Shown here one piece after another: positions 4,080 through 22,915 of a stretch of DNA of 64,000 bases. How positions within the stretch are numbered: position 1 is the stretch's first letter; each line of letters starts with the position of its first letter. The DNA lies in contig JACOXY010000011.1 of the NCBI GenBank assembly GCA_016182095.1, positions 3,794-67,793 of the forward strand. Direction: 5' to 3'. The position numbers and the translations under genes were made by a program. Under the pieces are notes generated by a model. It was not told where the DNA came from and ran no database searches. It saw only the letters and a program-made list of their open reading frames with translations. Source of the DNA: Candidatus Liptonbacteria bacterium. GTDB lineage: Bacteria; Patescibacteriota; Minisyncoccia; UBA6257; JACOXY01.

Positions 4080-4130
4080 TAAAACAAAAATCGTTGTTCT
4101 CTTGTTTTGTTGTTCTTTTGTTCTTTTATC

Positions 4131-5087: not shown

Positions 5088-5111
5088 AAAATCATTGAAT
5101 ATGGATGATTT

Positions 5112-5139
5112 ATCTCACACATAATATTATGTGTGAGAT
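5112..5139. promoter_or_regulatory. perfect 28 bp palindrome (hairpin or operator) between hicA and the DUF362-like gene
   Basis: atctcacacataatattatgtgtgagat is a perfect palindrome followed by a T-rich stretch on the plus strand. It could be a terminator for the hicBA transcript or an operator. Confidence 0.35.
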
Positions 5140-5373: not shown

Positions 5374-5382
5374 AAAACCTTA

Positions 5383-5709: not shown

Positions 5710-5730
5710 GCTTTTATATTACCCCACCCA

Positions 5731-5991
5731 ATGAAAAATAGCAATTTGACAAGGTTTATTTTTTATGCTAAAAATAGCAGAAGTAGTGGATGGGCCATTG
5801 CGAAATTGAAGGGGGCTCATGTGGACTCAGGTGATAGAACCAAGGCCGTGGAGTTCTGTGCTGACTGTGGATCAATCCTAGTTCCAAAAGTAGTGCAGAT
5901 TGGATACGATCGCCAAACCAGCAAGCCGATTTACATCACTGAGAAAAACTGCCCAACTTGGTGGCGATGGCATAGCCATCCAGCAGACTAA
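5731..5991 (+). CDS. hypothetical small protein (86 aa)
   Basis: ORF followed by an intrinsic terminator at 6021-6047; no motifs recognised. Confidence 0.3.
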   Translation: MKNSNLTRFIFYAKNSRSSGWAIAKLKGAHVDSGDRTKAVEFCADCGSILVPKVVQIGYDRQTSKPIYITEKNCPTWWRWHSHPAD

Positions 5992-6020
5992 CCCAGACCT
6001 TCGTTCCCGCGTCCTATTCG

Positions 6021-6047
6021 CCCCACCATTCGGTGGGGCATTCTTTT
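6021..6047 (+). terminator. rho-independent terminator
   Basis: Hairpin ccccacc-attc-ggtgggg followed by cattctttt. Confidence 0.5.
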
Positions 6048-6146
6048 AGCTTTGTATTACCACAAAATTCCCCAACAATAGCATATACCGATAGAAGCGA
6101 GGGCATACTGTAAGCCCTCACAGCTTCCAATGGGACAAGTCCATCT

Positions 6147-8024: not shown

Positions 8025-8030
8025 AATAAA

Positions 8031-8058
8031 TAGGGTTTAGGGTTTAGGGTTTAGGGTT
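8031..8058. repeat. (TTTAGGG)4 heptamer microsatellite spanning the stop codon of the GT2 gene
   Basis: tagggtttagggtttagggtttagggtt. It encodes the C-terminal ...TLNPKP* of 8037..8897 and ends 6 bp before the next gene's ATG. Confidence 0.85.
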
Positions 8059-8897
8059 CTCTTCTTTAGCTCATATATCTTAGAGTCGACTAAAAATCTG
8101 TACCAAAATCCCTGAAGGGTGTGCCATATTAACCCCGGTATACCGTCCAAGAATCCTAAACGAATAAAATAACGATATTTAAAGTATAGAAGAGCCCTCA
8201 AAAATGGAGGTAATTTATAATAAAAATTTTCCTTGTACCATCGCTTTTTTTCGGGATCAGAACCATGCCTGTCTGCCTTTATTGTTGTATTGTTCTGTTG
8301 TTCTGTTGTTTGAAGGTAAGCCTCCGCCTCCCTGGTCGCGTATTTATTGTGCTTTTCTATCCAAACAGACAAATTTTTCCTGTCATGTTCCTCAAAATCA
8401 TTTTGTAAATTAATAGTTTTCCCGCTAGATAAAATTACATGCTCATCCATCTCTCGTTCCTCATAACGGCCAGCATCTCTCCTCCAGAGACGCAAAAACC
8501 AAGCCGGATAATATCCGCCATGTTTAATCCACCTATTCATAAAGTAAACTCTCCTTTTTAAATAAAACCCCGTTGTTTCTCTTGTTAATTTGTTAAATTG
8601 TTCATTGATTTCATTCCATGTTTCGGGGAGCATTATCTCGTCCGCGTCCAAGCGCAAGATCCAGTCATTTTTAATAGCAACAGTGTCGAGTGCCCAGTTA
8701 AACTGCTCGGCCTGGTTTACGAACCTTCTCTGATGTACCTTGTCGGTATATTTTTTAACAATTTCCAGGGTTTTGTCGCGGCTCATGGAATCAACCACTA
8801 TAATCTCATCTACCCAATCGGCAATACTTTGCAGGCAGTTTTCAATATTTAGCTCTTCGTTGTAAGTAAGGATTATGGCGCTAATTGGCAATTTCAT
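8037..8897 (-). CDS. glycosyltransferase family 2 (LPS-core-type, WaaE/KdtX-like)
   Basis: AIILTYNEELNIENCL...VVDSMSRDKT...RLDADE carries the GT2 DxD motif and fold signature. Confidence 0.75.
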   Translation of the reverse strand: MKLPISAIILTYNEELNIENCLQSIADWVDEIIVVDSMSRDKTLEIVKKYTDKVHQRRFVNQAEQFNWALDTVAIKNDWILRLDADEIMLPETWNEINEQFNKLTRETTGFYLKRRVYFMNRWIKHGGYYPAWFLRLWRRDAGRYEEREMDEHVILSSGKTINLQNDFEEHDRKNLSVWIEKHNKYATREAEAYLQTTEQQNNTTIKADRHGSDPEKKRWYKENFYYKLPPFLRALLYFKYRYFIRLGFLDGIPGLIWHTLQGFWYRFLVDSKIYELKKRTLNPKP

Positions 8898-8908
8898 TGT
8901 TGAAGTAA

Positions 8909-9478
8909 TTAAAATAAGCTCTGCGGTAGGAACGTTTTTATATCTTCTGGTCGTAATAGCCTTACATCATCAGCGACTTTTGTAAGCCCGAATGACTGGC
9001 CTTTTGCAACTCCCACATATTGAACTCTCTTATTAAAAGATTGGGTCTCTTCAACGGCCGCAACTAAATCAGTATCTGAGCTTATTAAATATGCAATATC
9101 ATATTTATCTTGACGCGCAAACCGAATCATCTCAACGGCAAGCCGTACATCCACGCCCTTTTCATGAAAGGTTTTGTCGGGATGTTGAATTAGCTGGCCA
9201 AGCGTTATTGCGATTTTTTGCTGCTGCAATTTACCAATTAGTTTTTGCTGATCAGCATACATTTTTTCTGATTTTTCGTTTCTCTGTCGCTTTAGTGCCC
9301 CCACATAATAGTGAATTTCTATAAGCTGATTTGGAATCACAAGCCACTCTGCAAACCCTCGGAAGTTAAAATCGAGTAACTTAAATTTACCATCTACTCT
9401 TGAAGAAAGCTCTTTGAGTTTAAAGTAAAAATTGTTCCCGTCTATAAAAACAAAAGCTCTTTGTTTATTTTGGTTCAT
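8909..9478 (-). CDS. NYN-domain protein (LabA-like PIN-fold RNase)
   Basis: FIDGNNFYF...GVDVRLAVEMI...ISSDTDLV are the conserved acidic motifs of NYN/LabA domains. Confidence 0.65.
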   Translation of the reverse strand: MNQNKQRAFVFIDGNNFYFKLKELSSRVDGKFKLLDFNFRGFAEWLVIPNQLIEIHYYVGALKRQRNEKSEKMYADQQKLIGKLQQQKIAITLGQLIQHPDKTFHEKGVDVRLAVEMIRFARQDKYDIAYLISSDTDLVAAVEETQSFNKRVQYVGVAKGQSFGLTKVADDVRLLRPEDIKTFLPQSLF

Positions 9479-9609
9479 GAACTAAAACTGCCGTCCCGAG
9501 CAAACCGAGAAGGCAGTGAGATTAACACTTTTACTGTAGCGCAAACCTAGAGCGGCGTCAAGTACTCCTGTGAATAACTGGGGGCGCGTATAAACATGCT
9601 GTAAAAAGC

Positions 9610-10812
9610 TCATACAAGCTCATTGTACGCCGCAAGCCACTTTTTAGCTATATTGGGCCAAGAGTATTTTTCTTCTACTAATTTTCTGCCTCGCTCGCCC
9701 AAAGCCTTCCTTAAATCGTCATCGCGTAAGAGACCTAAAATTGCCTTGGCCAATTGCTCCTCGTTTTTTTCTATCACAATTCCAGCTTTTGCTTCTCTCA
9801 CATCGGGCGTGATGCCAACTCCTTCTGTTATCACAACTGGCACGCTCCGCGCCATCGCCTCAACCACGGAGCCGCCAAAGTTTTCGGAATATGAGGGCAT
9901 AACAAACATGTCGGCGCTTTGATAGGCCGCGGCCTTATCTTCCCCGCGCAAATCTCCGGTAAAAATCACGCTGTTAGTTGGCAGTTGGTGATGAGTAGTG
10001 AGTAGTTGGATTTCCTTTTTGTAGCCCTCATCATCACCCCCAACAATTACCAAAACTAAATTGTTCTCTTGTTCTATTGTTCTATTGTTTTCTTGTCGAA
10101 CAACTTCCGCAAAGGCAGGAATTAAAGTGTCAAAGCCTTTTTTCCAGTTTAACCGCCCAAGCGAGAGCACAATTTTGGCGTTCCCGGGAATATTAAATTT
10201 TATTCTAAATTCACTCTTTAATTCCTCATTACTGTTTACTAATTTCTTTTCCATTTCCACTCCATTGGCGATCACAATCGCCTTATTTAGCGGCAATCCT
10301 AATTTTAGATACTCCTCTTTTTCCAGCTCGGTCGTAAAGTGGATCGCTGAAGCTCCCGACAAATTCTTTTTTTCTATTAAACTGATATATAACTTTTTCT
10401 TGAAACTACTTTTCTTTTCTATGAGTTCCGTGATTAAACTACCGCGTGGAGAAATAATGTACGGCTTATTAAATCTTTTAGCGTACTTGGCGCCAAAATA
10501 AGAAGCGGAAAGGAAAACAGAGGTAATGTGGATAATATCAAAATCTTTCAGTGAATCACGCAGCGCTAAACGCAAGTCTCGAGAATAGAACCAGGAACGC
10601 AAAAATCGCGACGCCTTAAAATAATAAATTTTAACGCCATCGATAATATCGGTTTTTGTCTGCAAATCATCTCCGCCATCAATATTGGTTGTATAAACAG
10701 TTACTTCGGCGCCTTCTTTCGCTACCCATTTATTCAGCCCATGAACGCTCTTAATCGGACCACCGTAGCGGTAAGCCGGAAGATAAGTTGGGACTATATG
10801 GAGAATCTTCAT
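9610..10812 (-). CDS. glycosyltransferase family 4; start reassigned to the MKILHIV ATG at 10812
   Basis: MKILHIVPTYLPAYRYGGP is a canonical GT4 N-terminus, and the C-terminus has ...FVMPSYSENFGGSVVEAMARSVPVV... The track's TTG start at 10854 adds an atypical 14 aa. Confidence 0.8.
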   Translation of the reverse strand: MKILHIVPTYLPAYRYGGPIKSVHGLNKWVAKEGAEVTVYTTNIDGGDDLQTKTDIIDGVKIYYFKASRFLRSWFYSRDLRLALRDSLKDFDIIHITSVFLSASYFGAKYAKRFNKPYIISPRGSLITELIEKKSSFKKKLYISLIEKKNLSGASAIHFTTELEKEEYLKLGLPLNKAIVIANGVEMEKKLVNSNEELKSEFRIKFNIPGNAKIVLSLGRLNWKKGFDTLIPAFAEVVRQENNRTIEQENNLVLVIVGGDDEGYKKEIQLLTTHHQLPTNSVIFTGDLRGEDKAAAYQSADMFVMPSYSENFGGSVVEAMARSVPVVITEGVGITPDVREAKAGIVIEKNEEQLAKAILGLLRDDDLRKALGERGRKLVEEKYSWPNIAKKWLAAYNELV

Positions 10813-10833
10813 GAACGAAGTAATAAGTAAAGA

Positions 10834-10877
10834 GTAATTAGTAATTAAGTTCAAGGGCCATCCTTATTACTAATTAC
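10834..10877. promoter_or_regulatory. inverted repeat in a divergent promoter region (gtaattagtaat / attactaattac, 20 bp spacer)
   Basis: Two 12 bp arms are exact reverse complements, and a third direct partial copy (agttactaat) lies at 10886-10895. All sit between divergent genes 9610..10812(-) and 10941..11213(+). Confidence 0.4.
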
Positions 10878-10940
10878 CAGTTGCTAGTTACTAATGTTTG
10901 TGTTACAAATAGCGTAGCATTATTTATCGGGGGGTTTCAA

Positions 10941-11213
10941 ATGATTAAGCATGAAGTTGTGAACGGCTTTGAAGACGTGAGGCATCTTAAAGCAGTAATC
11001 ATTACAGAGCCGCCGTGGATCTTTCCGGAGCTTTATGGCATTGTGCAAAATAGCGACAAAAGCCCGCGCTTCTCTGATGTTCTTGCCAAACTTGAAATTA
11101 AGCCCTTGGAATTTATTGAGTTAATAGACGATAAGTTTAATGGGAGGCCGCACTACAAGTTACAGATTGGCATCACGGCAGTGGGGCATAAGTTAGCGAT
11201 TATCGCCTGCTAA
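10941..11213 (+). CDS. hypothetical protein (91 aa), start at the ATG with SD
   Basis: ggggg SD 7 nt upstream of the ATG at 10941; the track's TTG at 10881 is less likely. No motifs. Confidence 0.35.
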   Translation: MIKHEVVNGFEDVRHLKAVIITEPPWIFPELYGIVQNSDKSPRFSDVLAKLEIKPLEFIELIDDKFNGRPHYKLQIGITAVGHKLAIIAC

Positions 11214-11224
11214 ATAGCAGCACA

Positions 11225-11947
11225 TCAGCCAGAATCATTGGCTGATTTTCTTTCCCCTTTGCGGCTTACCCCGCTAAGCATTCTATAGTATTTCCTATAT
11301 AATCTTCCTGGCTTCCTCTTCGCGGCCAGAAAAAATTTAACAATGAATTTCAAATAAAAATAGAGCGTCTTTGATATTAAAGATTTTTTTACAAATAAAA
11401 CGTCGCCATTGTTGGTTAGTGAAAAGGGAATGCAATAAAATCCGGCTGATTCCAGTTTTGCTTTAATTTTCTCCACTCTGGGTTTTAATTCTGGATATAA
11501 GAAATCATGAAATTCAATGGTCATTTGATTAACATCCTTAAGATCATCAGGGGTCGCGGCTCCCAGTATCTGAACCTCTTCGCCCTCGATATCTATTTTT
11601 ATTAAGTCCACCTTTCCGTTCTGTTTTAAGATATTTGTGAATGCCACACTTGGGACTCGTATACTTGACTCTGATTTTTCAACCACCGTAATATCCATCC
11701 CCCGCCCCCAGGATAAATCTAAGTAACCATCCTCAACGCCCACAGCTTTGTTTATCTTTTGTACGAGATTATTAGCTGGAATGCGTTCAAAAAGTTCCCG
11801 TAGTGGCTCAAAGGTCAAGACCTTACAGCCAAAATCTTCGGATATGCGCCGCGCGAATTCACCCCTGTTACCGCCCAAATCCAAAACAAAAGAATTTTCG
11901 TCCAAAAGATTTCCCAAAAAGTTGTGTTCGCAGATTTCTTTAATCAT
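11225..11947 (-). CDS. FkbM-family methyltransferase
   Basis: LDLGGNRGEF...TFEP...KIDIEGEE is the Methyltransf_21 (FkbM) signature. Confidence 0.7.
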   Translation of the reverse strand: MIKEICEHNFLGNLLDENSFVLDLGGNRGEFARRISEDFGCKVLTFEPLRELFERIPANNLVQKINKAVGVEDGYLDLSWGRGMDITVVEKSESSIRVPSVAFTNILKQNGKVDLIKIDIEGEEVQILGAATPDDLKDVNQMTIEFHDFLYPELKPRVEKIKAKLESAGFYCIPFSLTNNGDVLFVKKSLISKTLYFYLKFIVKFFLAAKRKPGRLYRKYYRMLSGVSRKGERKSANDSG

Positions 11948-13085
11948 TTAACACTTTTTTATACGCATCAACTATTTTACTTCCATAGTCATTCCATGTA
12001 AAACCGGAAGAGACCCTCTCTTTGGCCGACCGCCCCATTTGCAAGCGTCTTTCGGAATTTTTATATAAGTAAAGAAGTTTTTCCTTTAGTAAATTTACAT
12101 CGCGAATCGGTATTACAAAACCATCAAGACCGTCGCGTACGATATCCTCGCCCCCGGTATTAGTAGTACAGATTACCGGCAGCCCGCAAGCCATAGCTTG
12201 CGGCTGGACCATGGCTAAACCTTCTTCAATAGACATCAAACAAAATACAGAGCCCTGCGAATAATATTTATAAAGTTCTTTTTGCGGCACATGTCCAATA
12301 TAGTTAAACTTTCCGTCATATTTTTTAAAGAAGGGTTTTATTTCGTCGTTTATTGAACCAATGAGCATCAATTCGGAATTGGGTAGGTTTAGCTCGGCAA
12401 AAGCCCGCAATAAGTAATGAACGCCCTTCCTTAAGCTCATGCCACCAGCAAAAATAATTCTAAAAACATTGTCCTCTTTTTTTACTTGCCGAAACGAAGA
12501 CAAGTCCGCTCCATAAGGAACGTGAATTAGTTTGGATTCGGGAAATCCTTTCTCCAAAAAAGTTCTTTTTACATAAAGGGAGGGTATAGAGATGAAATCC
12601 GCTTCATTGTATTCTTCAATCTCTTTCTGGACTACTTTAGGATGCCCAAGCTGCGACTTCAGGCCAAATTTTTCGTACTCCTCTTTTAAAATACTGTGCT
12701 GAAAACTTATGTGCGAGCTACCTCTTTCAATAATGGTCACTGCTCCTGCTTTTTTTGCCGCGCGCAAAGTATGCAAAGCATAACTTGACCAGGCGACGCA
12801 AATGTCCGCTCCGCTGACTTTTTTGGATGCCCATTTATCAAAAACTTCACAATTCAGATATTGCGGATTGCCGAAACTTCGAAGAAAGCCCGGCAATTTT
12901 CTATATCCCCTTCCTATGGCCTCCACCAAAATATTTGAGAAAATCTTTTCCTTTGGAATGCCGTATTTTTGAACTTCCGACTTTGGATAAGAAGTTATTA
13001 AGCTTTTTAGGTGGCCGCGTTTTTGCAATTCTTCTGCTAAATTAAAAGCATGAAAACGACCGGCAACTGAAATAATTATCCTCAT
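11940..13085 (-). CDS. glycosyltransferase family 4
   Basis: FAGGMSLRKGVHYLLRAF...MLIGS...FCLMSIEEGLAMVQPQAMACGLPVICT matches the GT1 C-terminal domain. Confidence 0.8.
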   Translation of the reverse strand: MRIIISVAGRFHAFNLAEELQKRGHLKSLITSYPKSEVQKYGIPKEKIFSNILVEAIGRGYRKLPGFLRSFGNPQYLNCEVFDKWASKKVSGADICVAWSSYALHTLRAAKKAGAVTIIERGSSHISFQHSILKEEYEKFGLKSQLGHPKVVQKEIEEYNEADFISIPSLYVKRTFLEKGFPESKLIHVPYGADLSSFRQVKKEDNVFRIIFAGGMSLRKGVHYLLRAFAELNLPNSELMLIGSINDEIKPFFKKYDGKFNYIGHVPQKELYKYYSQGSVFCLMSIEEGLAMVQPQAMACGLPVICTTNTGGEDIVRDGLDGFVIPIRDVNLLKEKLLYLYKNSERRLQMGRSAKERVSSGFTWNDYGSKIVDAYKKVLND

Positions 13086-13091
13086 AATAAA

Positions 13092-13991
13092 TCAGGCCAA
13101 TAATCCGTTTAATCCTTTTTTGTTGGAATCGCAATACTCATAGAAATAATTTTCCCAGTACGCGCATATTTTTTCGTACTCAGGCGCGCCGACGCCATAC
13201 ATGCTGTCAAATTCGGGCCGGGAAGTATTATCGCTTCTTTCTTCAAAAAATTTAAACCATTTTTGGTATTCTTCCAAATCTTCGGGCGTCCCCCATTGAC
13301 AAAAGTAATCCACCGGGTACACCAACGAACGTAACCCGTCTCTAATTAAAAAGTTAAACAGCAAGCTCATGTAATATTCGCCGTTAACCGGCGTTCCGTC
13401 ATGCAAAACTTTCGCGCAGTAATGTTTTAAATTTTCGCCGGTACTAAAATAAAATGTGCCGGCTTGTTGCCAAGTGTCCATTTTATTAGCGGTAAAGAAA
13501 TATTTTTCTCTAATCTCTGACGCATAGCCGAATTGATCAGTTTTCACGCCGGCGTATAAATTAGGGCCCAAAAGATGGGGATGGAATCCGCGATAGCAAA
13601 CCGAAGCGCTGGCTATTTTTTTGTCCGCAACAGTTTTCTTAAAATCTTTATAGTCCCATAACATAAAAAAATCGCAATAATTAACTATTACCGGCTCTTC
13701 ATTTTTTATAAACGAAGAGGCTTCTGCGATTGAATAGACAGGGCCTAATTTATGGGGCTTAATTGGCATGATTTTAGCCTCCGGCTTCAGAGATAAAAGT
13801 TTGTCTGCCAAATTAGTGCTTGCGAGATGGTCTTCGGCGCAGATAAAAACAAAATCTTTTTCTTCGGGGAATAAGTTAATTACGTACTCAATTATCGGTT
13901 TGCCGGCAACTTCAATTAACGGCTTTATGGCCGCGTAACCTTTATCTACAAATCGCTGTCCGCGGCCACTCATGGGAATAATGATTTGCAT
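13092..13991 (-). CDS. sugar/alcohol-phosphate nucleotidyltransferase (LicC/NTP_transf_3-like), paralog 1
   Basis: N-terminal IIPMSGRGQRF...KPLIEVAGKPII is the nucleotidyltransferase glycine-rich loop. It has a long C-terminal extension and is paralogous to 14715..15536. Confidence 0.55.
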   Translation of the reverse strand: MQIIIPMSGRGQRFVDKGYAAIKPLIEVAGKPIIEYVINLFPEEKDFVFICAEDHLASTNLADKLLSLKPEAKIMPIKPHKLGPVYSIAEASSFIKNEEPVIVNYCDFFMLWDYKDFKKTVADKKIASASVCYRGFHPHLLGPNLYAGVKTDQFGYASEIREKYFFTANKMDTWQQAGTFYFSTGENLKHYCAKVLHDGTPVNGEYYMSLLFNFLIRDGLRSLVYPVDYFCQWGTPEDLEEYQKWFKFFEERSDNTSRPEFDSMYGVGAPEYEKICAYWENYFYEYCDSNKKGLNGLLA

Positions 13992-13995
13992 AAGT

Positions 13996-14703
13996 TTAAC
14001 TATTGGCGTTATTTCTTAAAGCCCATATGTATTTGATTGACCGCCAAATTGTTTTTAACTTACTCTTCCAGGAAAACGCCCATTTTGACTCTCCATAAAT
14101 TCTATTTGGGAAATAAACATTAATAGTTTCTATTTCATAGCCATTATTTTGAGCCACGCACAGCAGGTAAAGATCAAGCGAGAAATCCTTTGGGGGGTTT
14201 TTCATTAAAGAGATCAATCCTCTGGGAAACAATTTCGGCTGAGCGTTAATCTCCGCGAACTTCCTGCGCAAAATTAAACTGGCGACAACCGCCATTCCAA
14301 AACTAAAAATTATCTGCGATAAAGCGCGGTTTATTCTCCAACCTTTTACAACCAATTTTTCGCTGCTATGGCCCGCGTACACATCATGCGCCCTAAAGAC
14401 GTCTGCCGCGGAAGTCTGCATGTCACTGTGTGTCCAGGCCACCATATCTCCCCGCGCCTCTTTTAACCCCGTCATTATAGCATGGCCATATCCACGGTTA
14501 GGCTGATAAGAGATCAGTTTGGCGAACCCATATTTTTCCTTCGGCAATATACACTCAAAAATACTAAGCGTGTCGTCTTTTGACCCGTCGTTCACACAAA
14601 TCAGTTCAAATTCATATAGGTTTGAAAATTCCGCGAAAGCCTCAAGCACAAGAGGGATGTTTCGCGATTCATTATAGAAGGGAATGATGATTGACAGTTT
14701 CAT
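13996..14703 (-). CDS. GT2-family polyprenyl-phosphate glycosyltransferase (DPM1/ArnC-like)
   Basis: LSIIIPFYNESRNI...CVNDGSKDDT...YQPNRGYGHAIMTGL with a C-terminal TM segment. Confidence 0.7.
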   Translation of the reverse strand: MKLSIIIPFYNESRNIPLVLEAFAEFSNLYEFELICVNDGSKDDTLSIFECILPKEKYGFAKLISYQPNRGYGHAIMTGLKEARGDMVAWTHSDMQTSAADVFRAHDVYAGHSSEKLVVKGWRINRALSQIIFSFGMAVVASLILRRKFAEINAQPKLFPRGLISLMKNPPKDFSLDLYLLCVAQNNGYEIETINVYFPNRIYGESKWAFSWKSKLKTIWRSIKYIWALRNNANS

Positions 14704-14714
14704 AGTATATAAAA

Positions 14715-15536
14715 TTAAAGCTTTGCCTGCGTTTTGAAATATTCATGCCAAAAATCATATCCGTCCTTATTTTTGATTTCCAGATTGCCGCTCTTGATAT
14801 TTTTTTCCCAGAAGCAATATTCCTCGTAGTCGGCCGGAGTTCCCCACCCGATATATTTAACGGGGAAAGAAATCGCTCGATGCCGAAGCTCACAGGCAAG
14901 AGCAATCATAGAATCTATGTAGAATTCTCCTTTGACTTTAACATTTCTGCTGACTAATTCATGAGCCAACTCTAAAAAATATTTTCCGCTCTTAAAAATA
15001 AAAGAGCCGGTTATGGCAAAATCGTTAAAAGGATCTGCGCTTATGGGAACTTTTACCGAAACTCCATGAATGTTGTTTTCATTATCCTGTCTTAACCAGC
15101 CCCACGCCTGAGGGTTGCGCGACAAATTCGGCTGCCGGGTAAAACTGAAAACTATCAAATCGGCCGATTTATCGGATAATATTTTTTTTAAGTTTTCTTC
15201 GTCATAAACCATCCCAAAATCGCAAGCGCCGACAAAAAGCGGCTCGTCATTATTAAAGTATTCCTTGGCAACCAAACAAGAATTAAGCTGTCCTTTCGGA
15301 TCGGGATCGACCAGTATTTTTACATTTTTACCAGCTGATTCGAGAGTTTTGATAAGCTCTTTTTCCAAAAGATGCTCGTTTCTAACGACAAAAGTCCAGA
15401 TGTCGCTTTCTGGCATTCCCCGAATAGCTCTCAAAATCATTGGCTTACCCGAAACCGGAATAAGAGGCTTCGATTGTTTATAGCCTGCCTCCACGAAACG
15501 CTGTCCACGGCCTGCCATTAAAACAACATTAATCAT
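14715..15536 (-). CDS. sugar/alcohol-phosphate nucleotidyltransferase (LicC-like), paralog 2
   Basis: MINVVLMAGRGQRF...KPLIPVSGKPMI has the same loop as 13092..13991. Confidence 0.55.
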   Translation of the reverse strand: MINVVLMAGRGQRFVEAGYKQSKPLIPVSGKPMILRAIRGMPESDIWTFVVRNEHLLEKELIKTLESAGKNVKILVDPDPKGQLNSCLVAKEYFNNDEPLFVGACDFGMVYDEENLKKILSDKSADLIVFSFTRQPNLSRNPQAWGWLRQDNENNIHGVSVKVPISADPFNDFAITGSFIFKSGKYFLELAHELVSRNVKVKGEFYIDSMIALACELRHRAISFPVKYIGWGTPADYEEYCFWEKNIKSGNLEIKNKDGYDFWHEYFKTQAKL

Positions 15537-15567: not shown

Positions 15568-16164
15568 TTATTTCCAAAAATCAACATATTCTTTCCCGAC
15601 CATAACGGCATCCAATCTAAAATTTATTTCTTTTATCTTTTCAATGTAGCGCTTAATATCTTCCGGACGGCCCCATCGATCAGGAGAGACGAGGCAGGTT
15701 TTAAAATTTTCCATGAGTAGCTTTCCTGTCTGGATATTTAGCGGCAATTTGGTATTCGTGTCTATCCACACCCAATCCACCAGATTTTTTTGCGCTAACG
15801 CCATTTCGATCGGCTCGGCCTCGCTATATCTAACCGCGATTTCTCTCACGCCATCCTTGCGAGAAGCGCGGTAAAGGTAAGGAAATTCAACATCCAAAAG
15901 AAAATAATTTGATTTAGGAATATTATATTTTTTAGCCAACTGAATACAGCGATTTTCTATACCGACTTCTTTAATATTGAAAACGATAAAGGCGTGATTA
16001 AATTTTTTTAAATATTCTTCCAAATCATCGCCGGTTCCCGGGTCATGATTCAAGTAAAGGGTGCCGTTGCGATTGTCATGGCGCACGTCAATCTCCACTC
16101 CATTTTCCTTTGGTACCGCATTCAATTCTTCAATCTTATTTACTCTATGTTCAATAATTAACAT
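15568..16164 (-). CDS. glycerophosphodiester phosphodiesterase-like (GDPD/GP-PDE fold) protein
   Basis: IEHRVN...GVEIDVRHD resembles the GP-PDE catalytic His/Glu-Asp blocks; this is a weak assignment. Confidence 0.35.
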   Translation of the reverse strand: MLIIEHRVNKIEELNAVPKENGVEIDVRHDNRNGTLYLNHDPGTGDDLEEYLKKFNHAFIVFNIKEVGIENRCIQLAKKYNIPKSNYFLLDVEFPYLYRASRKDGVREIAVRYSEAEPIEMALAQKNLVDWVWIDTNTKLPLNIQTGKLLMENFKTCLVSPDRWGRPEDIKRYIEKIKEINFRLDAVMVGKEYVDFWK

Positions 16165-16194: not shown

Positions 16195-17091
16195 CTAGGA
16201 AACCATCTTTAATCTTATTTTCTCTTTGCTCATATTTTTGATATAAAAAACGTCGCTTTCGTTGATAAATTTGGGGGTCCCCTTTATAGATTTTATCCCG
16301 CCAATAATATAATCCGCAGCGGAAGCAATTTCATAATAACCCGTTTTTTTAAATTCCGAAATTTCTCCCAAATTGACATCCGAAAAAACAGCGGAGTCGG
16401 GAAAGAGGTGTTTGGAAAAATCAATCGGTTTATTTAATAGCTGGAATGGCCCTATATTAAAATTGAAGAGGTAATTTTCAATAGTTTTATTCATTTCGGC
16501 GTGTAAATTCAGTGCCTTGTCGTCTCCATGGCCGTGTGTAATTACTCCGTGGTTTTCCAAAAAAATGATCTGTGGTAGCTCCATTTTCCGGCTCATCCTG
16601 TAAATAGCGAGGGCAAGATTAAAACCTGGATTATAATATGGAACAAAAAGAGTGTCTTGGCCTTTAAAAATTTCCTTTAAAACTTTTTCGCCTCCCTCCA
16701 TGCAATTAAATACATTGGCGTAAACACTGTGGGAATGTATGACATACTCCGAATCAAAAACCGCATGCATCCCGGCTTCTATGGAAGCTTCCCCAAAACT
16801 TTCGTCCCCGAAGCTATTTTTTTGAATCCATAAGTTGAAGTCATTTTCCGACTTCGCAAAGGATGCCTCTTCTAAACCCTGTCTCACCTTTTCAAAATCG
16901 CAGGCAATGTAGCCCTTATTCTCTTTTAAATCTTTAAGCAAGCAGCCCGATGCTTTTACGTACATTTTTTTACCTATCTTAACCGAAATATTGCCTCCGG
17001 CGCCCTGCGCGTAAGCGGGCGAAGACCCGATATTTTGCGACAGCCGGAAAAAATTGTTTAGTTTGTTCATTTCTTTAAAATACCTGCCCAT
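16195..17091 (-). CDS. class II aldolase/adducin-family protein
   Basis: GNISVK..., VIHSHSVYA and ENHGVITHGHG match the zinc-binding His blocks of class II aldolases and MtnB-like dehydratases. Confidence 0.55.
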   Translation of the reverse strand: MGRYFKEMNKLNNFFRLSQNIGSSPAYAQGAGGNISVKIGKKMYVKASGCLLKDLKENKGYIACDFEKVRQGLEEASFAKSENDFNLWIQKNSFGDESFGEASIEAGMHAVFDSEYVIHSHSVYANVFNCMEGGEKVLKEIFKGQDTLFVPYYNPGFNLALAIYRMSRKMELPQIIFLENHGVITHGHGDDKALNLHAEMNKTIENYLFNFNIGPFQLLNKPIDFSKHLFPDSAVFSDVNLGEISEFKKTGYYEIASAADYIIGGIKSIKGTPKFINESDVFYIKNMSKEKIRLKMVS

Positions 17092-19225
17092 CTAATTTCA
17101 TTTTAGAAAAAATAAAGTAACAAGTGAATAACTGAAGCAAGCCGTTATAATCATCCTCCCAAGAAGGCTCACACTCAATAATATCGTTTAGTTCCGGGAT
17201 TAAACTCATGGCGATGTCGCCCACTTCTTGTTTCGAGATCACGCCGCACAGCTCAAGATACTGATGATCGTCTTCATAATAGCGGTTTGTGAAGAGCCCC
17301 TCGCACCGCGCAAGTTCCGTCAAAAACGGATCTACATTGACATTATTTTCAAATTTTAACTTAAGTATGAGATCCAAGTTAATTTCATCGCCTAAATTAT
17401 CAATGTCGTTCTTGCTTAAAACCGAGACAACTATATCCGCATGTTTTTCCTGGCTTTGGATATATTTTAACGAGTCCCCCTCTCGAGATTTTATCTGATT
17501 TAGCACTTTAGCTTTGTCATAACCTCGCTCTTTTGTGTCGCGAGAAACCTTCCAATGAGCGCGCAGTTCTTCTGACGGTTTAAGAAAAATCTTAAGATCA
17601 AATAGCGTCCTCATTCTATCCAAATAAAAAGAGTGAAGACCCTGAAATATTATAACCCTCCTGGCGCTCAACCTCTTCGGAATTGTGAATTTCCCGCTTT
17701 GATGGTCGTAGAAACTTCTTTGAATACTTACGCCCCCTTTAAGACTCGAGGCATTCGCAAGTTCCGCATGAAGACTATTGGCGCGCGGATCCAAGTGAGT
17801 GTACTTCGACCAGTTAGCGTCTCCACGCTCCCATTTGTGCATGTCATCTCCCTCTATAATTAAAGTGTTTTTTCTTCCAAAGGCGGCGGAAAGCAAGGTG
17901 GCAAAGGTATTTTTCCCGGCACCAGAATCCCCGGCTATTCCTATTAGATACGACTGATATTTAATTTTGTATTGGACATTGCTCTCAATTCCCCTCTTGT
18001 AGATCCACAAAATATTAACGAGTAGAGTTCCTTGAAGAAGCGTAAAAGCAATATTGACCAATTTTTCCGCATCGACGCCAATGCCGACCAGATACTCATA
18101 AAGATTCGGTCCATTTGCAAAATTCGGAGCAACCAACTGAAAGACCTGCGGGAAATCGGAACTCTTGGTTATTAAAAAGTAAATAAAGTAAAAAGCGTTA
18201 AGCAGTAAGAATGTGAATTTGGGAGCATTACCTTCTTTAATGTAAAAGTAGATAAAAAACGGAATAATCCAGTAATACCAGCCCGGCATAGGAGGGATGA
18301 AAAGAGTCAAAATACCAAAGCTAAAACCCAGAAACATAAGAAAAATGTCCCTATTAAAACTTTTATAGGTTAAGCTCTTTATAAGCAAAGCGAGGTAGGC
18401 AAGCGGAACAAAATATAAGACGAGCGAGTCGCTAAACTTATAATTAAAATCAAATATTTTTATCTGCTCTTTGTTATTTAAAACAATTTCCCTGAATGCT
18501 GGTGAATATAAATAATCAAGATTTATAAGGGCGAAAAGCACAATGGGCATAAGGGCCAAAACCACAGCGCGAACCCAATCAACTTTTTTAAGCAGTAAGT
18601 AAACAAAAGCAAACGGAATTACTAGTATCATACCGGTTTTTGCCGCTACCGCGAAGGAAAGCAAAAGGAATGATTGGACATACATCTCCTTGAACAAAAG
18701 ATAAAGCGCGGCAAACAAAAACATCATAGGAATTGCATCAAGCTGGCCGTGGACATAATTGATGTAGAATAAAATCGGAGAACACCAATAATATACAAGC
18801 ACTTTGTTTTGTTTATTTTTGAGCCATCTAGCAAGAATAATAAAAATAATGATATCGGCCGCGAGTATAGGTAGGCGGTAAATAAAGATATCTGAATTAG
18901 AAATGAGGTTAAAGTCCGATCCCAAGAATGTCGCGAGCACTACCCTGGGTATGCTTAAAATCCAAAGCATAACCCTAGGATACGGGAAGATATTAAGCTC
19001 GCCTAAACTGTAGAAAAAATCATAGGGATTCTGAAATCCACTTGCTACAAAATAATTTATAAATCGCGCGAAAAGCTTAACCAAAAAATCAGAGGCGAAT
19101 GTATAAGCAAAAACTATTTTCACCGCCAAAACACCCCAAAAAACTGGCGACTTTAAAATCACCAACTTAGAAGTTCCTTTTTTGTCGTAAAAAAATTGCG
19201 TGATGTTCGTCATAAGAATCACCAA
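17075..19225 (-). CDS. fusion protein: N-terminal polytopic membrane domain (~420 aa) + C-terminal PRK/uridine-kinase-family P-loop kinase
   Basis: About 11 predicted hydrophobic helices precede the GIAGDSGAGKNTFA Walker A motif typical of the phosphoribulokinase/uridine kinase family. Confidence 0.6.
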   Translation of the reverse strand: MVILMTNITQFFYDKKGTSKLVILKSPVFWGVLAVKIVFAYTFASDFLVKLFARFINYFVASGFQNPYDFFYSLGELNIFPYPRVMLWILSIPRVVLATFLGSDFNLISNSDIFIYRLPILAADIIIFIILARWLKNKQNKVLVYYWCSPILFYINYVHGQLDAIPMMFLFAALYLLFKEMYVQSFLLLSFAVAAKTGMILVIPFAFVYLLLKKVDWVRAVVLALMPIVLFALINLDYLYSPAFREIVLNNKEQIKIFDFNYKFSDSLVLYFVPLAYLALLIKSLTYKSFNRDIFLMFLGFSFGILTLFIPPMPGWYYWIIPFFIYFYIKEGNAPKFTFLLLNAFYFIYFLITKSSDFPQVFQLVAPNFANGPNLYEYLVGIGVDAEKLVNIAFTLLQGTLLVNILWIYKRGIESNVQYKIKYQSYLIGIAGDSGAGKNTFATLLSAAFGRKNTLIIEGDDMHKWERGDANWSKYTHLDPRANSLHAELANASSLKGGVSIQRSFYDHQSGKFTIPKRLSARRVIIFQGLHSFYLDRMRTLFDLKIFLKPSEELRAHWKVSRDTKERGYDKAKVLNQIKSREGDSLKYIQSQEKHADIVVSVLSKNDIDNLGDEINLDLILKLKFENNVNVDPFLTELARCEGLFTNRYYEDDHQYLELCGVISKQEVGDIAMSLIPELNDIIECEPSWEDDYNGLLQLFTCYFIFSKMKLDGQVF

Positions 19226-19254: not shown

Positions 19255-19911
19255 TTATTTTTTAACTAAAACCGCTCTTAAGCCCGGCCCTTTCGCGCCC
19301 AGCATGTCGCGCTTATAGCTATCCCCCAGAACCATTACGTCGCCGCGCTTAAATCCAACCTTTTGAAGGGCAAGCTTAAAGATATGGGGGGCGGGTTTTT
19401 CCCTTCCCGCCTCCTCGGAGGATACAATAAAATCAATATATTTTGCAATCTTTAGAAGTTTAACCTTTTTGAATTGGATCCTGGCGGTTAGGTCGGTAAC
19501 TAAACAGATTTTAATATGATTCTCTTTGCATTCCTTTAAAAAACCCAGCGCCCCTTTTGCAAGCTTCATTTTTCCAAAAAAACTTTTCCAGTATAAAGTT
19601 TCCAAATCTAAAGTCAGATCAACATTTGTCTTCCCAAAATAATTTTCCAAAAGAGCCTGAAAATATAAAAGCCGAGAGTGGGAAGCGGCTTGAGTTGGAA
19701 TTCTTTTTTTAATCTTTTCTTTGGCTCTTTCATAAAATCGCAAAAAATCTTCGAATGAAAGTTTTTCTACTTTAGTAAATTTTTTATAACAAGCCAAAAT
19801 GGCATACTCATGACACGCGCGATAGTCGTAGAGAGTATTATCCAAGTCCAAAAGGATTGCCTTTGTTCCGCGAAGATTGATCTTTGAAAATTTCACGAGT
19901 TTTTGTTTCAT
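19255..19911 (-). CDS. HAD-superfamily hydrolase (phosphatase)
   Basis: ILLDLDNTLYD is HAD motif I, LVTDLT is motif II, and LGDSYKRDMLGA is motif IV. Confidence 0.65.
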   Translation of the reverse strand: MKQKLVKFSKINLRGTKAILLDLDNTLYDYRACHEYAILACYKKFTKVEKLSFEDFLRFYERAKEKIKKRIPTQAASHSRLLYFQALLENYFGKTNVDLTLDLETLYWKSFFGKMKLAKGALGFLKECKENHIKICLVTDLTARIQFKKVKLLKIAKYIDFIVSSEEAGREKPAPHIFKLALQKVGFKRGDVMVLGDSYKRDMLGAKGPGLRAVLVKK

Positions 19912-21491
19912 TTCTTTTTGCTTGAGGGACAGTCGTAGATACTGAAAGCATAGCCTGGCATAATTCCGGTTTCGGTTATGGGAAGGCCGAAAACTAATGG
20001 CTCTTTGCGTATGAAAAAATCGTTTGTCTTACGGCAATAATCCCAATTTGCCGGAAGCTCTTTCCAGCCGTTAAATCCTTCTCGCATTATGGTGATGCCA
20101 GTAGGATACAAAACATCCGGAACCTGATTCCAAAGACGCATTGGCCCATAATTTTCCGAAATAGCCCAGATTGTTGAATCAACATTAAGGCGCTCATCAG
20201 GATTCAGAGAAAGTTCTTTAAAAATCGCCCGAGCTTCTCTTAAAGACATCCCATCTTTAATAAAGAACGGAAAGAGCGTGAGGCGCTGAAAAAAGAATAC
20301 CGAACCCGCCACAATAACGATAAAGGCAACACTTTTTAAAATTATTGAATGACTATAATTTGTTGTCCAGTGAACAATAACCAAAAAGAAAAGGGGGGCT
20401 ATAGAAAATAAGTATTGGGCGCCGGGTCTTATGAAAATAAAATAAGAAAATATCGCCGCTGTTAATATGACGAAAAAATGCCAAAGGATTGGGGAGGGAG
20501 CGTGCTTTCTGTGCCGTGAGTACCAGAAACTCATACATAGTATGGCAAGCGCTACAATTCTTCCGGGAGAAACAGCGCCCAGTGGAGAAAAATCGGAAAG
20601 AAAGGGCTTGATTACTCCGCTTCGGGTAGTCGCCTTTTGTAATACCGGTTCCACACTGCGCCCCAAAACCACTCTGTCAATATATTCCTGCGCCCCCAGT
20701 TGGGAATTAAGCTGTGAAAAATGGTGGTACATTCCTTTTGTTGTCGGCGCCAATCCATAGCCAAAGACTTCAAGTACAAAAACAAAAGTAAAAAGCGATA
20801 CCATGAGGGCGGAAAGGCCGTATGCTAATGCTTTTTTAGGAGGGTGATAAAAAGCAAAAAAAAGACCAATTAGCGGAGCGAAGAGAATGGCGGAAGCCGG
20901 ATTTGTTGCTAGAGCCAATCCCAGCAAGAAACCGAAGAAAAGCCATAGCCATCTTAGTCGCGGCCCCAATAACCCAAGCAAAGCCAATGAGATGAGAAGC
21001 CGAGAAAGCGTTTCTGGTCTGCCAGAGTCAAAAATAATTGCGCTCGCAAGAGCAAATAATGTTGCTATATAGATAGCGACACCATACCAAGATATTTCTT
21101 GCCAGTCGGAAATTATAACTTTTTTGTAAATGACAGCCGCCGCGATAATGGTAATGGCGTAAAGAATAAAAATGGCAATATGCGCTCCTTGGGAAGTGCC
21201 AGTGGGCATAAGCCAGCTAATCACCAAGGGGAATAGTGGTGGGGATATCAAGTGTCTGCCGGTACCCGATAGATCACCAACCAGAAACTGGGGCGATAGT
21301 TGATTTACAAGTCCGCGATCCAACCTGTGATTGATGGCAGACGGAATGTAGTAGGCGGAATCACCGCCCAAAACCGGGTAAGCATTTAAGGCAAAAATAA
21401 AAAGAGTAACGATAATTAATATCGGGACAATCGTTATTAGTACCAACTTGATGTTGTTCGCTGTAAATCGCGACAAATAGTTTAACTCCAT
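19908..21491 (-). CDS. polytopic membrane protein with C-terminal soluble domain (candidate GT-C-type glycosyltransferase/polymerase), paralog 1
   Basis: More than 10 hydrophobic helices. The N-terminal block NAYPVLGGDSAYYIPSAINH and the C-terminal domain are shared with 34359..35921; YGGD is also found in 41990..43255. Confidence 0.45.
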   Translation of the reverse strand: MELNYLSRFTANNIKLVLITIVPILIIVTLFIFALNAYPVLGGDSAYYIPSAINHRLDRGLVNQLSPQFLVGDLSGTGRHLISPPLFPLVISWLMPTGTSQGAHIAIFILYAITIIAAAVIYKKVIISDWQEISWYGVAIYIATLFALASAIIFDSGRPETLSRLLISLALLGLLGPRLRWLWLFFGFLLGLALATNPASAILFAPLIGLFFAFYHPPKKALAYGLSALMVSLFTFVFVLEVFGYGLAPTTKGMYHHFSQLNSQLGAQEYIDRVVLGRSVEPVLQKATTRSGVIKPFLSDFSPLGAVSPGRIVALAILCMSFWYSRHRKHAPSPILWHFFVILTAAIFSYFIFIRPGAQYLFSIAPLFFLVIVHWTTNYSHSIILKSVAFIVIVAGSVFFFQRLTLFPFFIKDGMSLREARAIFKELSLNPDERLNVDSTIWAISENYGPMRLWNQVPDVLYPTGITIMREGFNGWKELPANWDYCRKTNDFFIRKEPLVFGLPITETGIMPGYAFSIYDCPSSKKK

Positions 21492-21508: not shown

Positions 21509-22915
21509 TTATGGAAGCCAGTTGTTCCTGAATTTGTTTTCGTTTTTACTAATTTTCTCGAAGAGGGCAGTAACGCGAGAAGCCGATAATTCATGATTAA
21601 CATGCAGGTGGATGTAAAGCTGGTCCACAAGATAAAGCAGAAAAAAGTAATAAGCATCGCCTTTTTCTATATTCCAAAACTTGAGCATGCAGTCTAAAAT
21701 GCTTTGAATCTTAGTATTTTTTATAAAAAATAAATCTTGGATATTTCGTTCATATAACTCCACATAATTACCTTTTTTAAATCTACCGCCGCTTATTATC
21801 AAACTGTACAAATCGAAAATCTGCGGGAAGCCAAATCTCGCCTGCTCCCAGTCTATGACAAAAAACTTAGAACTTAGAACATTGAACATTGAACTGCTGG
21901 GGGCGGCAACACAAAGCATCTCAAAAAATGGAAACTCTCTCTTGGTAAGAGAAAAAATAAATGATTTGCTGTTTAAATTATCAACAGCTTTATCAAAAAA
22001 ATATTTTATCGACTTAAATCGTTCGTTGCTCATTTTTGATTGCAAAAATGAGAGTTCGCTTTGTATTTCGTTATAAAAATTAGATTCAGTAAAAATCTTT
22101 TCCTCTTTGGTTTTATCTGATAGTTTTTTTAAAAAATCAAGGTGGCAATTTTTAATAGCATCAATCCCGCGCGTACCACCAAACATTCCAACATTCTGCC
22201 CTAATTGGCCGAGCCAACGGGCTTTAGGCCCTAATTGGCCGAGCCAACGGGCTTTAGGCCCTAATTGGCCGAGCCAACGGGCTTTAGGCCCTAATTGGCC
22301 GAGCCAACGGGCTTTAGGCAGAATGTTGGAATGTTTGGTCTCTGATGATGGTGGTGGTGGGGAGAGAATTATGACAAGCGCTCCGCGAAAATAATCTTTG
22401 GCGAGTACCCGAGGAAAAGAAAATCCTGGTATATCTAATTTTTGTAAATAATCGAGGATTTTGGCTTCGTTCTCGCCATAAATCTCGCTTTCACGGCCAG
22501 GAAAATAAACTTTAGCGACACTCAAAAGCTTGCCGCTTTTTTCGCCAAAAATGGGAAGTATATATTTTCTGGAACCGGAGTAAACTGAAAAAGTGACCGG
22601 CTCTTCGAATTTGGTTTTAGAGGCGAGAAAAGAAAAAATCTCTTCGTTTTTGTCTACAAAAACTTTTTTTCTAAAAACAAACCACCAAACAAAATCAAGA
22701 TTAAAAATCCTTAAAAGAGTTATTTTGGCCTTACTCCAAAAATCTTTGCCTTTGTAAAGATAAAATTCTCTTAATGCGGCGGCTCGGAGATGCTTCGCGC
22801 CAAAAGGCAAAGCCACTCCGCTTTTTAAAAATTCACCGCTTAGCACCACGAATCGCGCCTCGCTAAAGCTACGAGATTTTTTTATATCTACTTTCTCAAA
22901 CAAATTCCACGGCAT
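21509..22915 (-). CDS. choline/aminoglycoside-kinase-like (APH-fold) protein carrying an in-frame 54-codon repeat insertion
   Basis: FFVIDWEQARFGFPQIFDL resembles the IDxE...FD block of choline kinase/APH. The expected HxDxxxxN catalytic motif is not evident. A 4x GPKARWLGQL repeat is encoded by the Family-1 element. Confidence 0.45.
   Translation of the reverse strand: MPWNLFEKVDIKKSRSFSEARFVVLSGEFLKSGVALPFGAKHLRAAALREFYLYKGKDFWSKAKITLLRIFNLDFVWWFVFRKKVFVDKNEEIFSFLASKTKFEEPVTFSVYSGSRKYILPIFGEKSGKLLSVAKVYFPGRESEIYGENEAKILDYLQKLDIPGFSFPRVLAKDYFRGALVIILSPPPPSSETKHSNILPKARWLGQLGPKARWLGQLGPKARWLGQLGPKARWLGQLGQNVGMFGGTRGIDAIKNCHLDFLKKLSDKTKEEKIFTESNFYNEIQSELSFLQSKMSNERFKSIKYFFDKAVDNLNSKSFIFSLTKREFPFFEMLCVAAPSSSMFNVLSSKFFVIDWEQARFGFPQIFDLYSLIISGGRFKKGNYVELYERNIQDLFFIKNTKIQSILDCMLKFWNIEKGDAYYFFLLYLVDQLYIHLHVNHELSASRVTALFEKISKNENKFRNNWLP
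22178..22339. repeat. Family-1 palindromic element, copy D: 23 bp perfect inverted arms around 4 x 30 bp tandem repeats (162 bp total), in-frame within a CDS
   Basis: Arms accaaacattccaacattctgcc / ggcagaatgttggaatgtttggt. The interior is (ctaattggccgagccaacgggctttaggcc)x4. Its length is a multiple of 3 and the host ORF stays open. Confidence 0.85.

Follow-up and report, generated by a model that had tools for sequence, protein, structure and literature searches.

A phosphoribulokinase-type kinase fused to a GT-C-fold membrane domain in a putative surface-glycosylation cassette of bacteria and archaea

We analysed a 64,000-nucleotide stretch of DNA from Candidatus Liptonbacteria bacterium (assembly GCA_016182095.1, contig JACOXY010000011.1, positions 3,794 to 67,793 of the forward strand), referred to below as the window and numbered from its first letter. 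Within a glycan island of the window, one gene joins a polytopic membrane domain to a P-loop kinase domain. Judged from its sequence, the kinase half is a phosphoribulokinase (PRK)-type pentulose-5-phosphate 1-kinase of the plant/cyanobacterial type, and structural modelling gives the membrane half a GT-C fold. Our preferred interpretation, held with moderate confidence, is that this gene marks an extended Gtr-type surface-glycosylation cassette, that its product is a bifunctional inner-membrane GT-C-kinase, and that the cassette would make its donor sugar from D-ribulose 5-phosphate (Ru5P) via ribulose 1,5-bisphosphate (RuBP). The gene and its two domains are as follows (aa, amino acids; TM, transmembrane).

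17075..19225, minus strand: fusion gene, one uninterrupted open reading frame (ORF) of 716 aa; modelled GT-C-fold membrane domain followed by a phosphoribulokinase-type kinase
17966..19225, minus strand: N-terminal domain, aa 1-420; modelled GT-C fold with about 12 TM helices, N-in/C-in
17078..17953, minus strand: C-terminal domain, aa 425-716; predicted plant/cyanobacterial-type PRK fold

The original prediction had described 17075-19225 as a single gene with a polytopic N-terminal half and a P-loop C-terminal half, and the ORF lies exactly there. Neither a frameshift nor a stop codon separates the halves, and many full-length homologues are colinear with the window protein; their large number rules out a frameshift or an assembly artefact as the source of the fusion. 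The start codon is ambiguous: translation could begin at a TTG at 19225 or at an in-frame ATG at 19213 (12 nt, or four codons, downstream), the latter giving a protein of 712 aa, and no clear ribosome-binding site is seen at either start (19213-19225). In a public assembly the identical protein (P0001) is called at 695 aa, 21 residues shorter, which cuts off conserved residues. Because residues 10-25 are conserved across the family, we consider the longer form more likely.

The identity of the kinase half emerges from profile, sequence and structure comparisons. Pfam PRK (PF00485) matches aa 427-608 (E = 5e-37, 128 bits versus a cut-off of 22), and the cyanobacterial/plant phosphoribulokinase model NF005655 ranks first in NCBIfam (194.6 bits, aa 425-675) with uridine kinase at 72 bits. 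Among PDB sequences, Synechococcus PRK (6hzk) aligns with the domain ungapped over 185 residues (about 40% identity, E = 1.5e-36). PRKs also make up all 19 of the best Foldseek matches to the full AlphaFold model (predicted local distance difference test, pLDDT, 90.7). The GIAGDSGAGKNTFA motif occupies aa 429-442 of the fusion protein, and within it GDSGAGKNT (aa 432-440) fits the pattern GxxGxGK[ST]; in the P-loop itself (432-438), G432, S434, G437 and K438 are invariant. Through the ungapped 6hzk alignment, D460 and H508 fall on the catalytic Asp/His pair (Asp57/His105 of CrPRK), whose role in plant-type PRK has been described (PMC9978339). An ungapped match to 5b3f, read with a 20-residue offset between the chain and the published numbering, equates H463, K559 and R562 with His55, Lys151 and Arg154 of MhPRK (His45, Lys165 and Arg168 of RsPRK); the Ru5P- and ATP-binding residues of these two enzymes are given in PMC5241800. 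All five residues are invariant in both subfamilies of the fusion protein (see below), as are R467, D563 and R567.

Overall, the fusion kinase shares with class II PRKs (Synechococcus 6HZK/6KEV; archaeal 5B3F) its fold, P-loop and Asp/His pair, as well as the His, Lys and Arg that bind Ru5P and ATP. Unlike photosynthetic PRK, the fusion kinase sits behind a 12-TM domain, is encoded inside glycan loci and lacks the regulatory redox Cys pair, which is replaced by A436 and E458. Of the window and cassette genes that we examined, none belongs to Rubisco or the Calvin cycle. A uridine kinase or a generic P-loop NTPase was ruled out by the difference between the two NCBIfam scores (194.6 versus 72 bits) and by the retention of PRK-specific residues. 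Hence, of the membrane-embedded PRK/uridine-kinase-family enzyme originally predicted, the PRK family membership stands and uridine kinase does not; nor is the P-loop domain a non-kinase NTPase, its PRK catalytic and substrate-binding residues being intact.

We next consider the membrane half. AlphaFold modelled the N-terminal domain alone with pLDDT 90.4 and pTM (predicted template modelling score) 0.90. The best Foldseek match in the PDB is glycosylphosphatidylinositol (GPI) mannosyltransferase I (GPI-MT-I; 9wno, E = 1.6e-4, template modelling (TM) scores 0.59/0.61), and further matches include ALG6 (6snh), ALG3 (9s6r), PIG-U, ALG12, AglB, EmbB and AftB. The TM scores of the top matches range from 0.52 to 0.62, with sequence identity of only 12-15% to GPI-MT-I, ALG6 and ALG3. 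Pfam gives weak matches in relatives, to ALG6/ALG8 in 5/20 (best 2.7e-7), to GT87 in 4/20 and to ALG3 in 3/20; the window fusion protein itself has no GT-C Pfam match. The alternative offered in the original prediction, that the membrane part could be a transferase, agrees with the modelled fold and with these family matches. GPI-MT-I (PIG-M/Gpi14), ALG6 and ALG3, which act on lipid-linked acceptors, are the best structural matches across the whole N-terminal domain (TM scores 0.54-0.62). Unlike them, the fusion protein bears a C-terminal cytoplasmic kinase, and its first outer loop has no conserved acidic residue.

Helix boundaries in the AlphaFold model, combined with family-wide counts of Lys and Arg (positive-inside rule), give a topology of 12 TM helices and cytoplasmic N- and C-terminal ends, plus one short helix within the long first outer loop (aa 43-109). 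The N-terminal half is polytopic as had been predicted, with 12 membrane-spanning helices in place of the roughly 11 counted earlier. Because both ends of the N-terminal domain lie in the cytoplasm, the kinase is expected to be cytoplasmic. Three charged residues, D124, D163 and K196, are invariant across both subfamilies, as is a PxGWYxWxxPF motif; helix boundaries and charge statistics place D124 inside a TM helix and both D163 and K196 at the outer face. The mean pairwise identity is 48% for the N-terminal half versus 53% for the kinase core.

The original prediction had suggested a search for the same fusion in other genomes. We found it widely: fusion of the membrane half to the kinase is the rule in this family. 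A word-indexed search returned 526 homologues of the fusion protein; among the best 120, nearly every one is colinear and about 700-735 aa long. A scan of one genome per species revealed at least 175 loci encoding the fusion protein, the top 80 of them from different metagenome-assembled genomes (MAGs) or genomes. The listed loci belong to Patescibacteria, Saccharibacteria, Bacteroidota, Alpha- and Gammaproteobacteria, Rickettsiales-labelled MAGs, Melainabacteria, Bdellovibrionales, a spirochaete endosymbiont and DPANN archaea, and include the cultured carriers Eudoraea adriatica, Geojedonia litorea and Zeaxanthinibacter enoshimensis. The closest homologues (60-63% identity) come from MAGs labelled Gammaproteobacteria and Patescibacteria. 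More than 1,800 proteins form a second subfamily at about 28% identity, with a representative on an E. coli plasmid. When the membrane half alone was used in an exhaustive profile search, 484 protein clusters were found at E ≤ 1e-30 and 862 at E ≤ 1e-10; almost all of the best 150 matches are 660-745 aa long, which corresponds to the fused form, and the shorter ones resemble fragments. Few members carry a name, and the names given are 'uridine kinase', 'Phosphoribulokinase', 'zeta toxin family' and 'hypothetical protein'.

In the window, the fusion gene stands within a run of genes on the same strand.

13092..13991, minus strand: nucleotidyltransferase b (NTPb), a predicted sugar-phosphate nucleotidyltransferase (Pfam PF12804, NCBIfam)
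13996..14703, minus strand: GT2, polyprenyl-phosphate glycosyltransferase type (ArnC/GtrB/DPMS/PpgS-like)
14715..15536, minus strand: nucleotidyltransferase a (NTPa), a predicted sugar-phosphate nucleotidyltransferase (Pfam and NCBIfam)
15568..16164, minus strand: 198-aa cytoplasmic protein with a PLC/GDPD-like motif (invariant H6, R7, N9, E24, D26 and H40)
16195..17091, minus strand: class II aldolase-like Zn enzyme (Pfam PF00596), downstream of the fusion gene and overlapping it by 17 nt
19255..19911, minus strand: HAD phosphatase, best match ribulose-1,5-bisphosphate 5-phosphatase, upstream of the fusion gene
19908..21491, minus strand: variable polytopic membrane protein of 527 aa, directly upstream of the HAD gene, candidate GtrC-like transferase

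The class II aldolase-like gene downstream, the HAD phosphatase upstream and the location in a glycan island are all as originally described. To define the conserved set, we compared the window neighbours with 80 related loci by tblastn. Seven genes co-occur, in counts that include many loci cut by contig ends: the fusion gene (80/80), NTPa and NTPb (72/80 each), the aldolase-like gene (68/80), the HAD gene (63/80), and the genes for the 198-aa protein and the GT2 (61/80 each). Gene order is shuffled between phyla and orientation is kept. The loci with this cassette come from Patescibacteria, Bacteroidota, Proteobacteria, Melainabacteria and DPANN archaea. Conservation across the 80 loci does not extend to the flanking GT4, the 527-aa membrane protein or a 468-aa protein.

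Some cassette genes are also fused to one another. In a GT-C-PRK-aldolase fusion of about 1059 aa (P0091) the aldolase is attached to the C-terminus of the kinase, and in GtrA-GT-C-PRK fusions of 785-844 aa (P0253 and others) GtrA precedes the membrane half. NTPb-NTPa fusions occur in loci L053 and L081 (Flavobacteriaceae, plasmids), and an NTPa-GT2 fusion in L024 (alphaproteobacterial loci).

For the HAD protein, the best family is NF053830 (E = 1.7e-50, full length, 171.8 bits), the next one scoring 104 bits, and its catalytic DxD, Lys and Asp motifs are invariant. The haloarchaeal RuBP 5-phosphatase has been shown to turn RuBP into ribulose 1-phosphate (Ru1P) (PMC9700705). In the aldolase-like protein, the catalytic Glu (E105), the Zn-binding His triad (H119, H121 and H181) and the phosphate-binding motifs are invariant, and there is a conserved C-terminal extension. 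Single-sequence and profile searches of the 198-aa protein against the PDB and Pfam gave nothing significant. In the E. coli and Azospirillum plasmid cassettes, the protein in the matching slot carries a PI-PLC/GDPD family annotation; from the motif and from this annotation of its plasmid counterparts, we treat the protein as putatively PLC/GDPD-like. The GT2 aligns over its full length with ArnC and a dolichyl-phosphate hexose transferase; its alignments with GtrB, DPMS and PpgS are partial (PDB, NCBIfam).

For the 527-aa membrane protein, searches of Pfam, NCBIfam and PHROGs gave no family, and none of the 80 related loci encodes a relative. Elsewhere its slot holds a PMT_2-type GT-C protein (L006) or a phage glucosyltransferase, phrog_19534 (L081 and L083), and these second large membrane proteins are unrelated from one locus to the next. 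Its position makes the 527-aa protein a candidate acceptor-specific, GtrC-like transferase. In many related cassettes, we observed a TylF-type O-methyltransferase gene (15488-16243 in L006; 7902-8615 in L053), which points to methylation of the transferred sugar in the organisms concerned. The window's cassette has no such gene; the window carries instead an FkbM-family methyltransferase at 11225-11947.

In the pathway that we propose, the C-terminal PRK would phosphorylate Ru5P (or a close pentulose 5-phosphate) at O1 to the 1,5-bisphosphate as the first committed step; given the residues retained, phosphorylation of such a substrate at O1 is the most likely reaction of the kinase half. The HAD phosphatase would then take off the 5-phosphate to leave Ru1P. 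The class II aldolase-like Zn enzyme would rework the ketose 1-phosphate, most plausibly by AraD-style retro-aldol epimerisation; an AraD-type inversion at C4 would, for example, convert D-ribulose 1-phosphate into L-xylulose 1-phosphate. Together, the two nucleotidyltransferases and the PLC/GDPD-like protein would produce a nucleotide-activated sugar, which the ArnC/GtrB-like GT2 would load onto polyprenyl phosphate and which GtrA, where present, would flip across the membrane in its lipid-linked form. The N-terminal GT-C domain, with D163 and K196 at the outer face, would act on the flipped lipid-linked sugar, and the variable second membrane transferase would give acceptor specificity. Tethering of the kinase would keep RuBP, a dead-end and potentially toxic compound in the absence of Rubisco, coupled to its consumers. 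A ketopentose, for instance xylulofuranose, may be the final sugar. The best-supported chemistry is the step from Ru5P to RuBP, carried out by the fused PRK, followed by that from RuBP to Ru1P, carried out by the HAD enzyme; all later steps we infer.

The succession of kinase, bisphosphate, removal of the distal phosphate and 1-phosphate would be the same as in nucleoside diphosphate (NDP)-heptose synthesis. There, the kinase HddA/HldE, the HAD phosphatase GmhB and the nucleotidyltransferase HddC act: a bisphosphate is made by the kinase, its distal phosphate is removed by the HAD enzyme and the 1-phosphate is activated, a logic that the cassette appears to follow. Unlike the NDP-heptose pathway, the cassette uses another kinase family and would process a ketopentose, not an aldoheptose, through a non-anomeric 1-phosphate. 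With the Gtr systems (GtrA flippase, GtrB GT2, GtrC GT-C) the cassette shares a polyprenyl-phosphate GT2, GtrA in many loci, GT-C-fold proteins, and phage and plasmid carriage. The pairing of a HAD 5-phosphatase with a phosphorylated pentose precursor is also found in pentofuranose Gtr-type systems (Kelly et al. 2024, PMC11127046). Unlike Gtr systems, the cassette adds a dedicated six-enzyme module that starts with PRK, and its donor would not come from the common nucleotide-sugar/phosphoribosyl pyrophosphate pool. It also has two GT-C-fold proteins, one conserved and kinase-fused, the other variable, and the window is without GtrA.

Several observations weigh against the proposed pathway. Both central enzymes score under the curated NCBIfam cut-offs (194.6 versus 236 bits for the kinase, 171.8 versus 330 bits for the HAD protein with NF053830), and the substrates could therefore differ. 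Every pathway step rests on homology and gene context. Ru1P is not an anomeric phosphate, and known chemistry gives no route from it to a donor that the GT2 could use. We know of no glycan structure for any carrier of the cassette. A search of all six frames of the 64-kb window with a GtrA hidden Markov model gave no match; GtrA is found in 30/80 related loci and, when only loci with full flanks are counted, in 18/43, being absent from 25/43. Finally, the first outer loop, the usual seat of GT-C catalytic bases, has no invariant acidic residue, and a separate variable transferase-like membrane protein usually accompanies the cassette. Because of these last two facts, the fused GT-C domain may not be the transferase.

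The role of that domain is the least certain point, and the strongest competitor of the preferred interpretation leaves the pathway unchanged and alters this role only. The fused GT-C-fold domain would then be a non-catalytic membrane module, with transfer carried out by the variable second protein. Such a module could be an anchor that keeps the kinase, and in some species the aldolase, in a membrane-bound metabolon; it could also bind the polyprenyl-phosphate sugar and link kinase activity to the status of the lipid carrier. We regard this as possible, though the less likely of the two roles. It is favoured by the composition of the first outer loop, where no position of aa 43-110 is Asp or Glu in more than 51% of 43 sequences and position 66 is Asn in 74% of members, and by the presence of PIG-U, a GT-C-like subunit of GPI transamidase that binds GPI, among the top structural matches. 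Moreover, a separate variable membrane protein accompanies the cassette (PMT_2 in L006; phrog_19534 in L081 and L083), and one GT-C suffices for a classical Gtr system. However, the N-terminal half is about as conserved as the kinase core, and D124, D163, K196 and the PxGWYxWxxPF motif are invariant across subfamilies that are only 28% identical, which exceeds the constraint on a simple anchor. The location of D163 and K196 at the outer face and the fusion to GtrA are what would be expected of a consumer of a flipped donor. Weighing these features, we lean slightly towards a catalytic role over that of a scaffold or sensor.

Two other explanations concern the substrate. The original prediction proposed that the kinase might phosphorylate a lipid-linked substrate such as a polyprenol or polyprenyl-linked sugar; the membrane domain would bind that substrate. 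The kinase does follow directly after the last TM helix, and the fold of the membrane domain is one that binds polyprenyl-phosphate sugars. Nevertheless, we consider a lipid substrate highly improbable: the full PRK active site is retained, including D460/H508 and the Ru5P/ATP-binding H463, K559 and R562; the partner enzymes are a RuBP-5-phosphatase-like HAD protein and a ketose-1-phosphate-type class II aldolase, the latter fused to the kinase in some species; and the usual GT-C donor site faces the outside, whereas ATP is inside. Because the PRK active site is kept and the neighbouring HAD enzyme is most similar to RuBP 5-phosphatase, a soluble pentulose 5-phosphate is the likely substrate. 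The cassette could instead encode a catabolic or salvage route like the non-carboxylating pentose bisphosphate pathway of haloarchaea (RuBP to Ru1P to dihydroxyacetone phosphate (DHAP) plus glycolaldehyde), its place in a glycan island being coincidental or serving C2/C3 supply. Two enzyme families are indeed shared with that pathway (Sato et al. 2022, PMC9700705), since its RuBP 5-phosphatase is the best match of the HAD protein and both systems contain a class II aldolase-family enzyme, here with an intact active site. However, the cassette RuBP would come from PRK and not from ribose-1,5-bisphosphate isomerase, the context is biosynthetic and the scores lie below the cut-offs. No ribose-1,5-bisphosphate isomerase, ribose-1-phosphate kinase, nucleoside phosphorylase or glycolaldehyde reductase is found among the conserved cassette genes. 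The kinase, HAD and aldolase trio instead travels with two nucleotidyltransferases and a polyprenyl-phosphate GT2, is fused to GT-C and GtrA domains, and is carried by a phage and plasmids with GtrC-like genes; a dedicated pathway would also be unnecessary for DHAP. We therefore find a catabolic role very unlikely.

Returning to the glycosylation pathway, a bolder version of it addresses the anomeric carbon, and we offer it as speculation that is unlikely to hold as a whole. The cassette would be the missing route to a ketopentofuranose (xylulofuranose, possibly ribulofuranose) by way of a 'phosphate walk', with RuBP as a glycan intermediate in both bacteria and archaea; the fused domain would be a novel type of GT-C, whose active site is formed by D163 and K196 and not by the first outer loop. 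PRK would phosphorylate C1, the HAD enzyme would clear C5 and the aldolase-like enzyme would set the stereochemistry at C3/C4. The first nucleotidyltransferase would form an NDP-1-ketopentose, from which the PLC/GDPD-like enzyme would generate a 1,2-cyclic phosphate and then a 2-phosphate. The second nucleotidyltransferase would convert this into a true anomeric NDP-sugar for the GT2, activating the ketose at its tertiary anomeric carbon. Xylulofuranose has been reported in E. coli O95/O97, in Y. enterocolitica O:10 (as a side branch), in C. jejuni RM1221, in Devosia and in chlorovirus glycans, and according to reviews the genes for activated xylulofuranose are unassigned (PMC7685785, PMC11380512, PMC8707391).

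The mobile copies bear on the function of the cassette as well. On the E. coli IncR plasmid NZ_CP145712.1 (L081), a 9-kb cassette at 6022-14984 contains, in order, the fused nucleotidyltransferases (NTP-NTP), GtrA, GT2, the PLC/GDPD protein, the fusion gene (annotated 'uridine kinase'), HAD, class II aldolase and a 586-aa membrane protein. We found the cassette in only 2/5,426 complete E. coli genomes, plasmid-borne in both, using near and distant DNA search modes. The 9-kb cassettes are identical and lie on small plasmids of two unrelated isolates, one from human stool (the IncR plasmid) and one from a bullfrog, with IS26 nearby. An Azospirillum brasilense plasmid has an equivalent cassette with GtrA that adjoins ABC-transporter O-antigen, gmd and GDP-fucose-synthase genes. 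In L083 (IMG/VR UViG_3300015262_000245), a full cassette with GtrA at 22-8869 adjoins portal and large-terminase genes at 9415-12470, and the last gene of this cassette, like the 586-aa E. coli protein, matches PHROG 19534 (glucosyltransferase, moron/auxiliary category). L083 thus appears to be a phage-borne version of the cassette, comparable to the serotype-converting gtrABC genes. It is the one phage contig found in IMG/VR, and tblastn against the INPHARED phage collection gave no match. Because a phage and plasmids carry it together with a GtrC-like gene, the cassette may serve in serotype conversion.

The presence of phosphoribulokinase is taken to indicate the Calvin cycle or, in more recent work, an archaeal Rubisco pathway. 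Our analysis finds a PRK whose active site is intact tied to the machinery of glycan synthesis across thousands of genomes, including those of non-autotrophs (Patescibacteria, DPANN archaea, Rickettsiales-labelled MAGs, Flavobacteriaceae and E. coli plasmids), and metagenomic PRK matches cannot be taken as evidence of carbon fixation. The names 'uridine kinase', 'phosphoribulokinase' and 'hypothetical protein' given to the family are probably misleading. If the proposed pathway is true, the synthesis of cell-surface glycans passes through RuBP and Ru1P, and the cassette is a testable candidate for the entry of rare ketopentoses into bacterial glycans, a gap named in the O-antigen literature. 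The family of each domain and the overall type of system are known; what is new is the recruitment of PRK and RuBP phosphatase to glycan synthesis, the GT-C-kinase fusion and a GT-C domain that lacks the usual loop residue. We found no publication describing the GT-C-PRK fusion or the cassette in literature searches on PRK with glycosyltransferases, activated ribulose or xylulose, and xylulofuranose. The cassette is widespread and mis-annotated, and the copy already present in E. coli makes genetics and lipopolysaccharide chemistry feasible.

Other window genes that we examined encode GT4 glycosyltransferases, sugar aminotransferases, a NodU-like carbamoyltransferase, GmhA and a B12-radical-SAM enzyme, and a few are without a family match; the window contains no housekeeping genes. 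One of these few is the ORF at 21509-22915 (minus strand), just upstream of the cassette, which encodes the 468-aa protein. Inside it, at 22198-22319, lies a perfect 30-bp tandem repeat (4.1 copies) that encodes ARWLGQLGPK units and could be a length-variable (contingency) locus. A single ORF at 61319-62683 (minus strand) combines an NDP-sugar dehydrogenase-like region (aa 44-259) with a complete GmhA sedoheptulose-7-phosphate isomerase (aa 298-451), and is either an unusual fusion or a truncated dehydrogenase. The B12-binding radical SAM enzyme (HpnJ/BchE-like) is encoded at 49239-50753 on the plus strand, within the glycan island and opposite to most of its genes.

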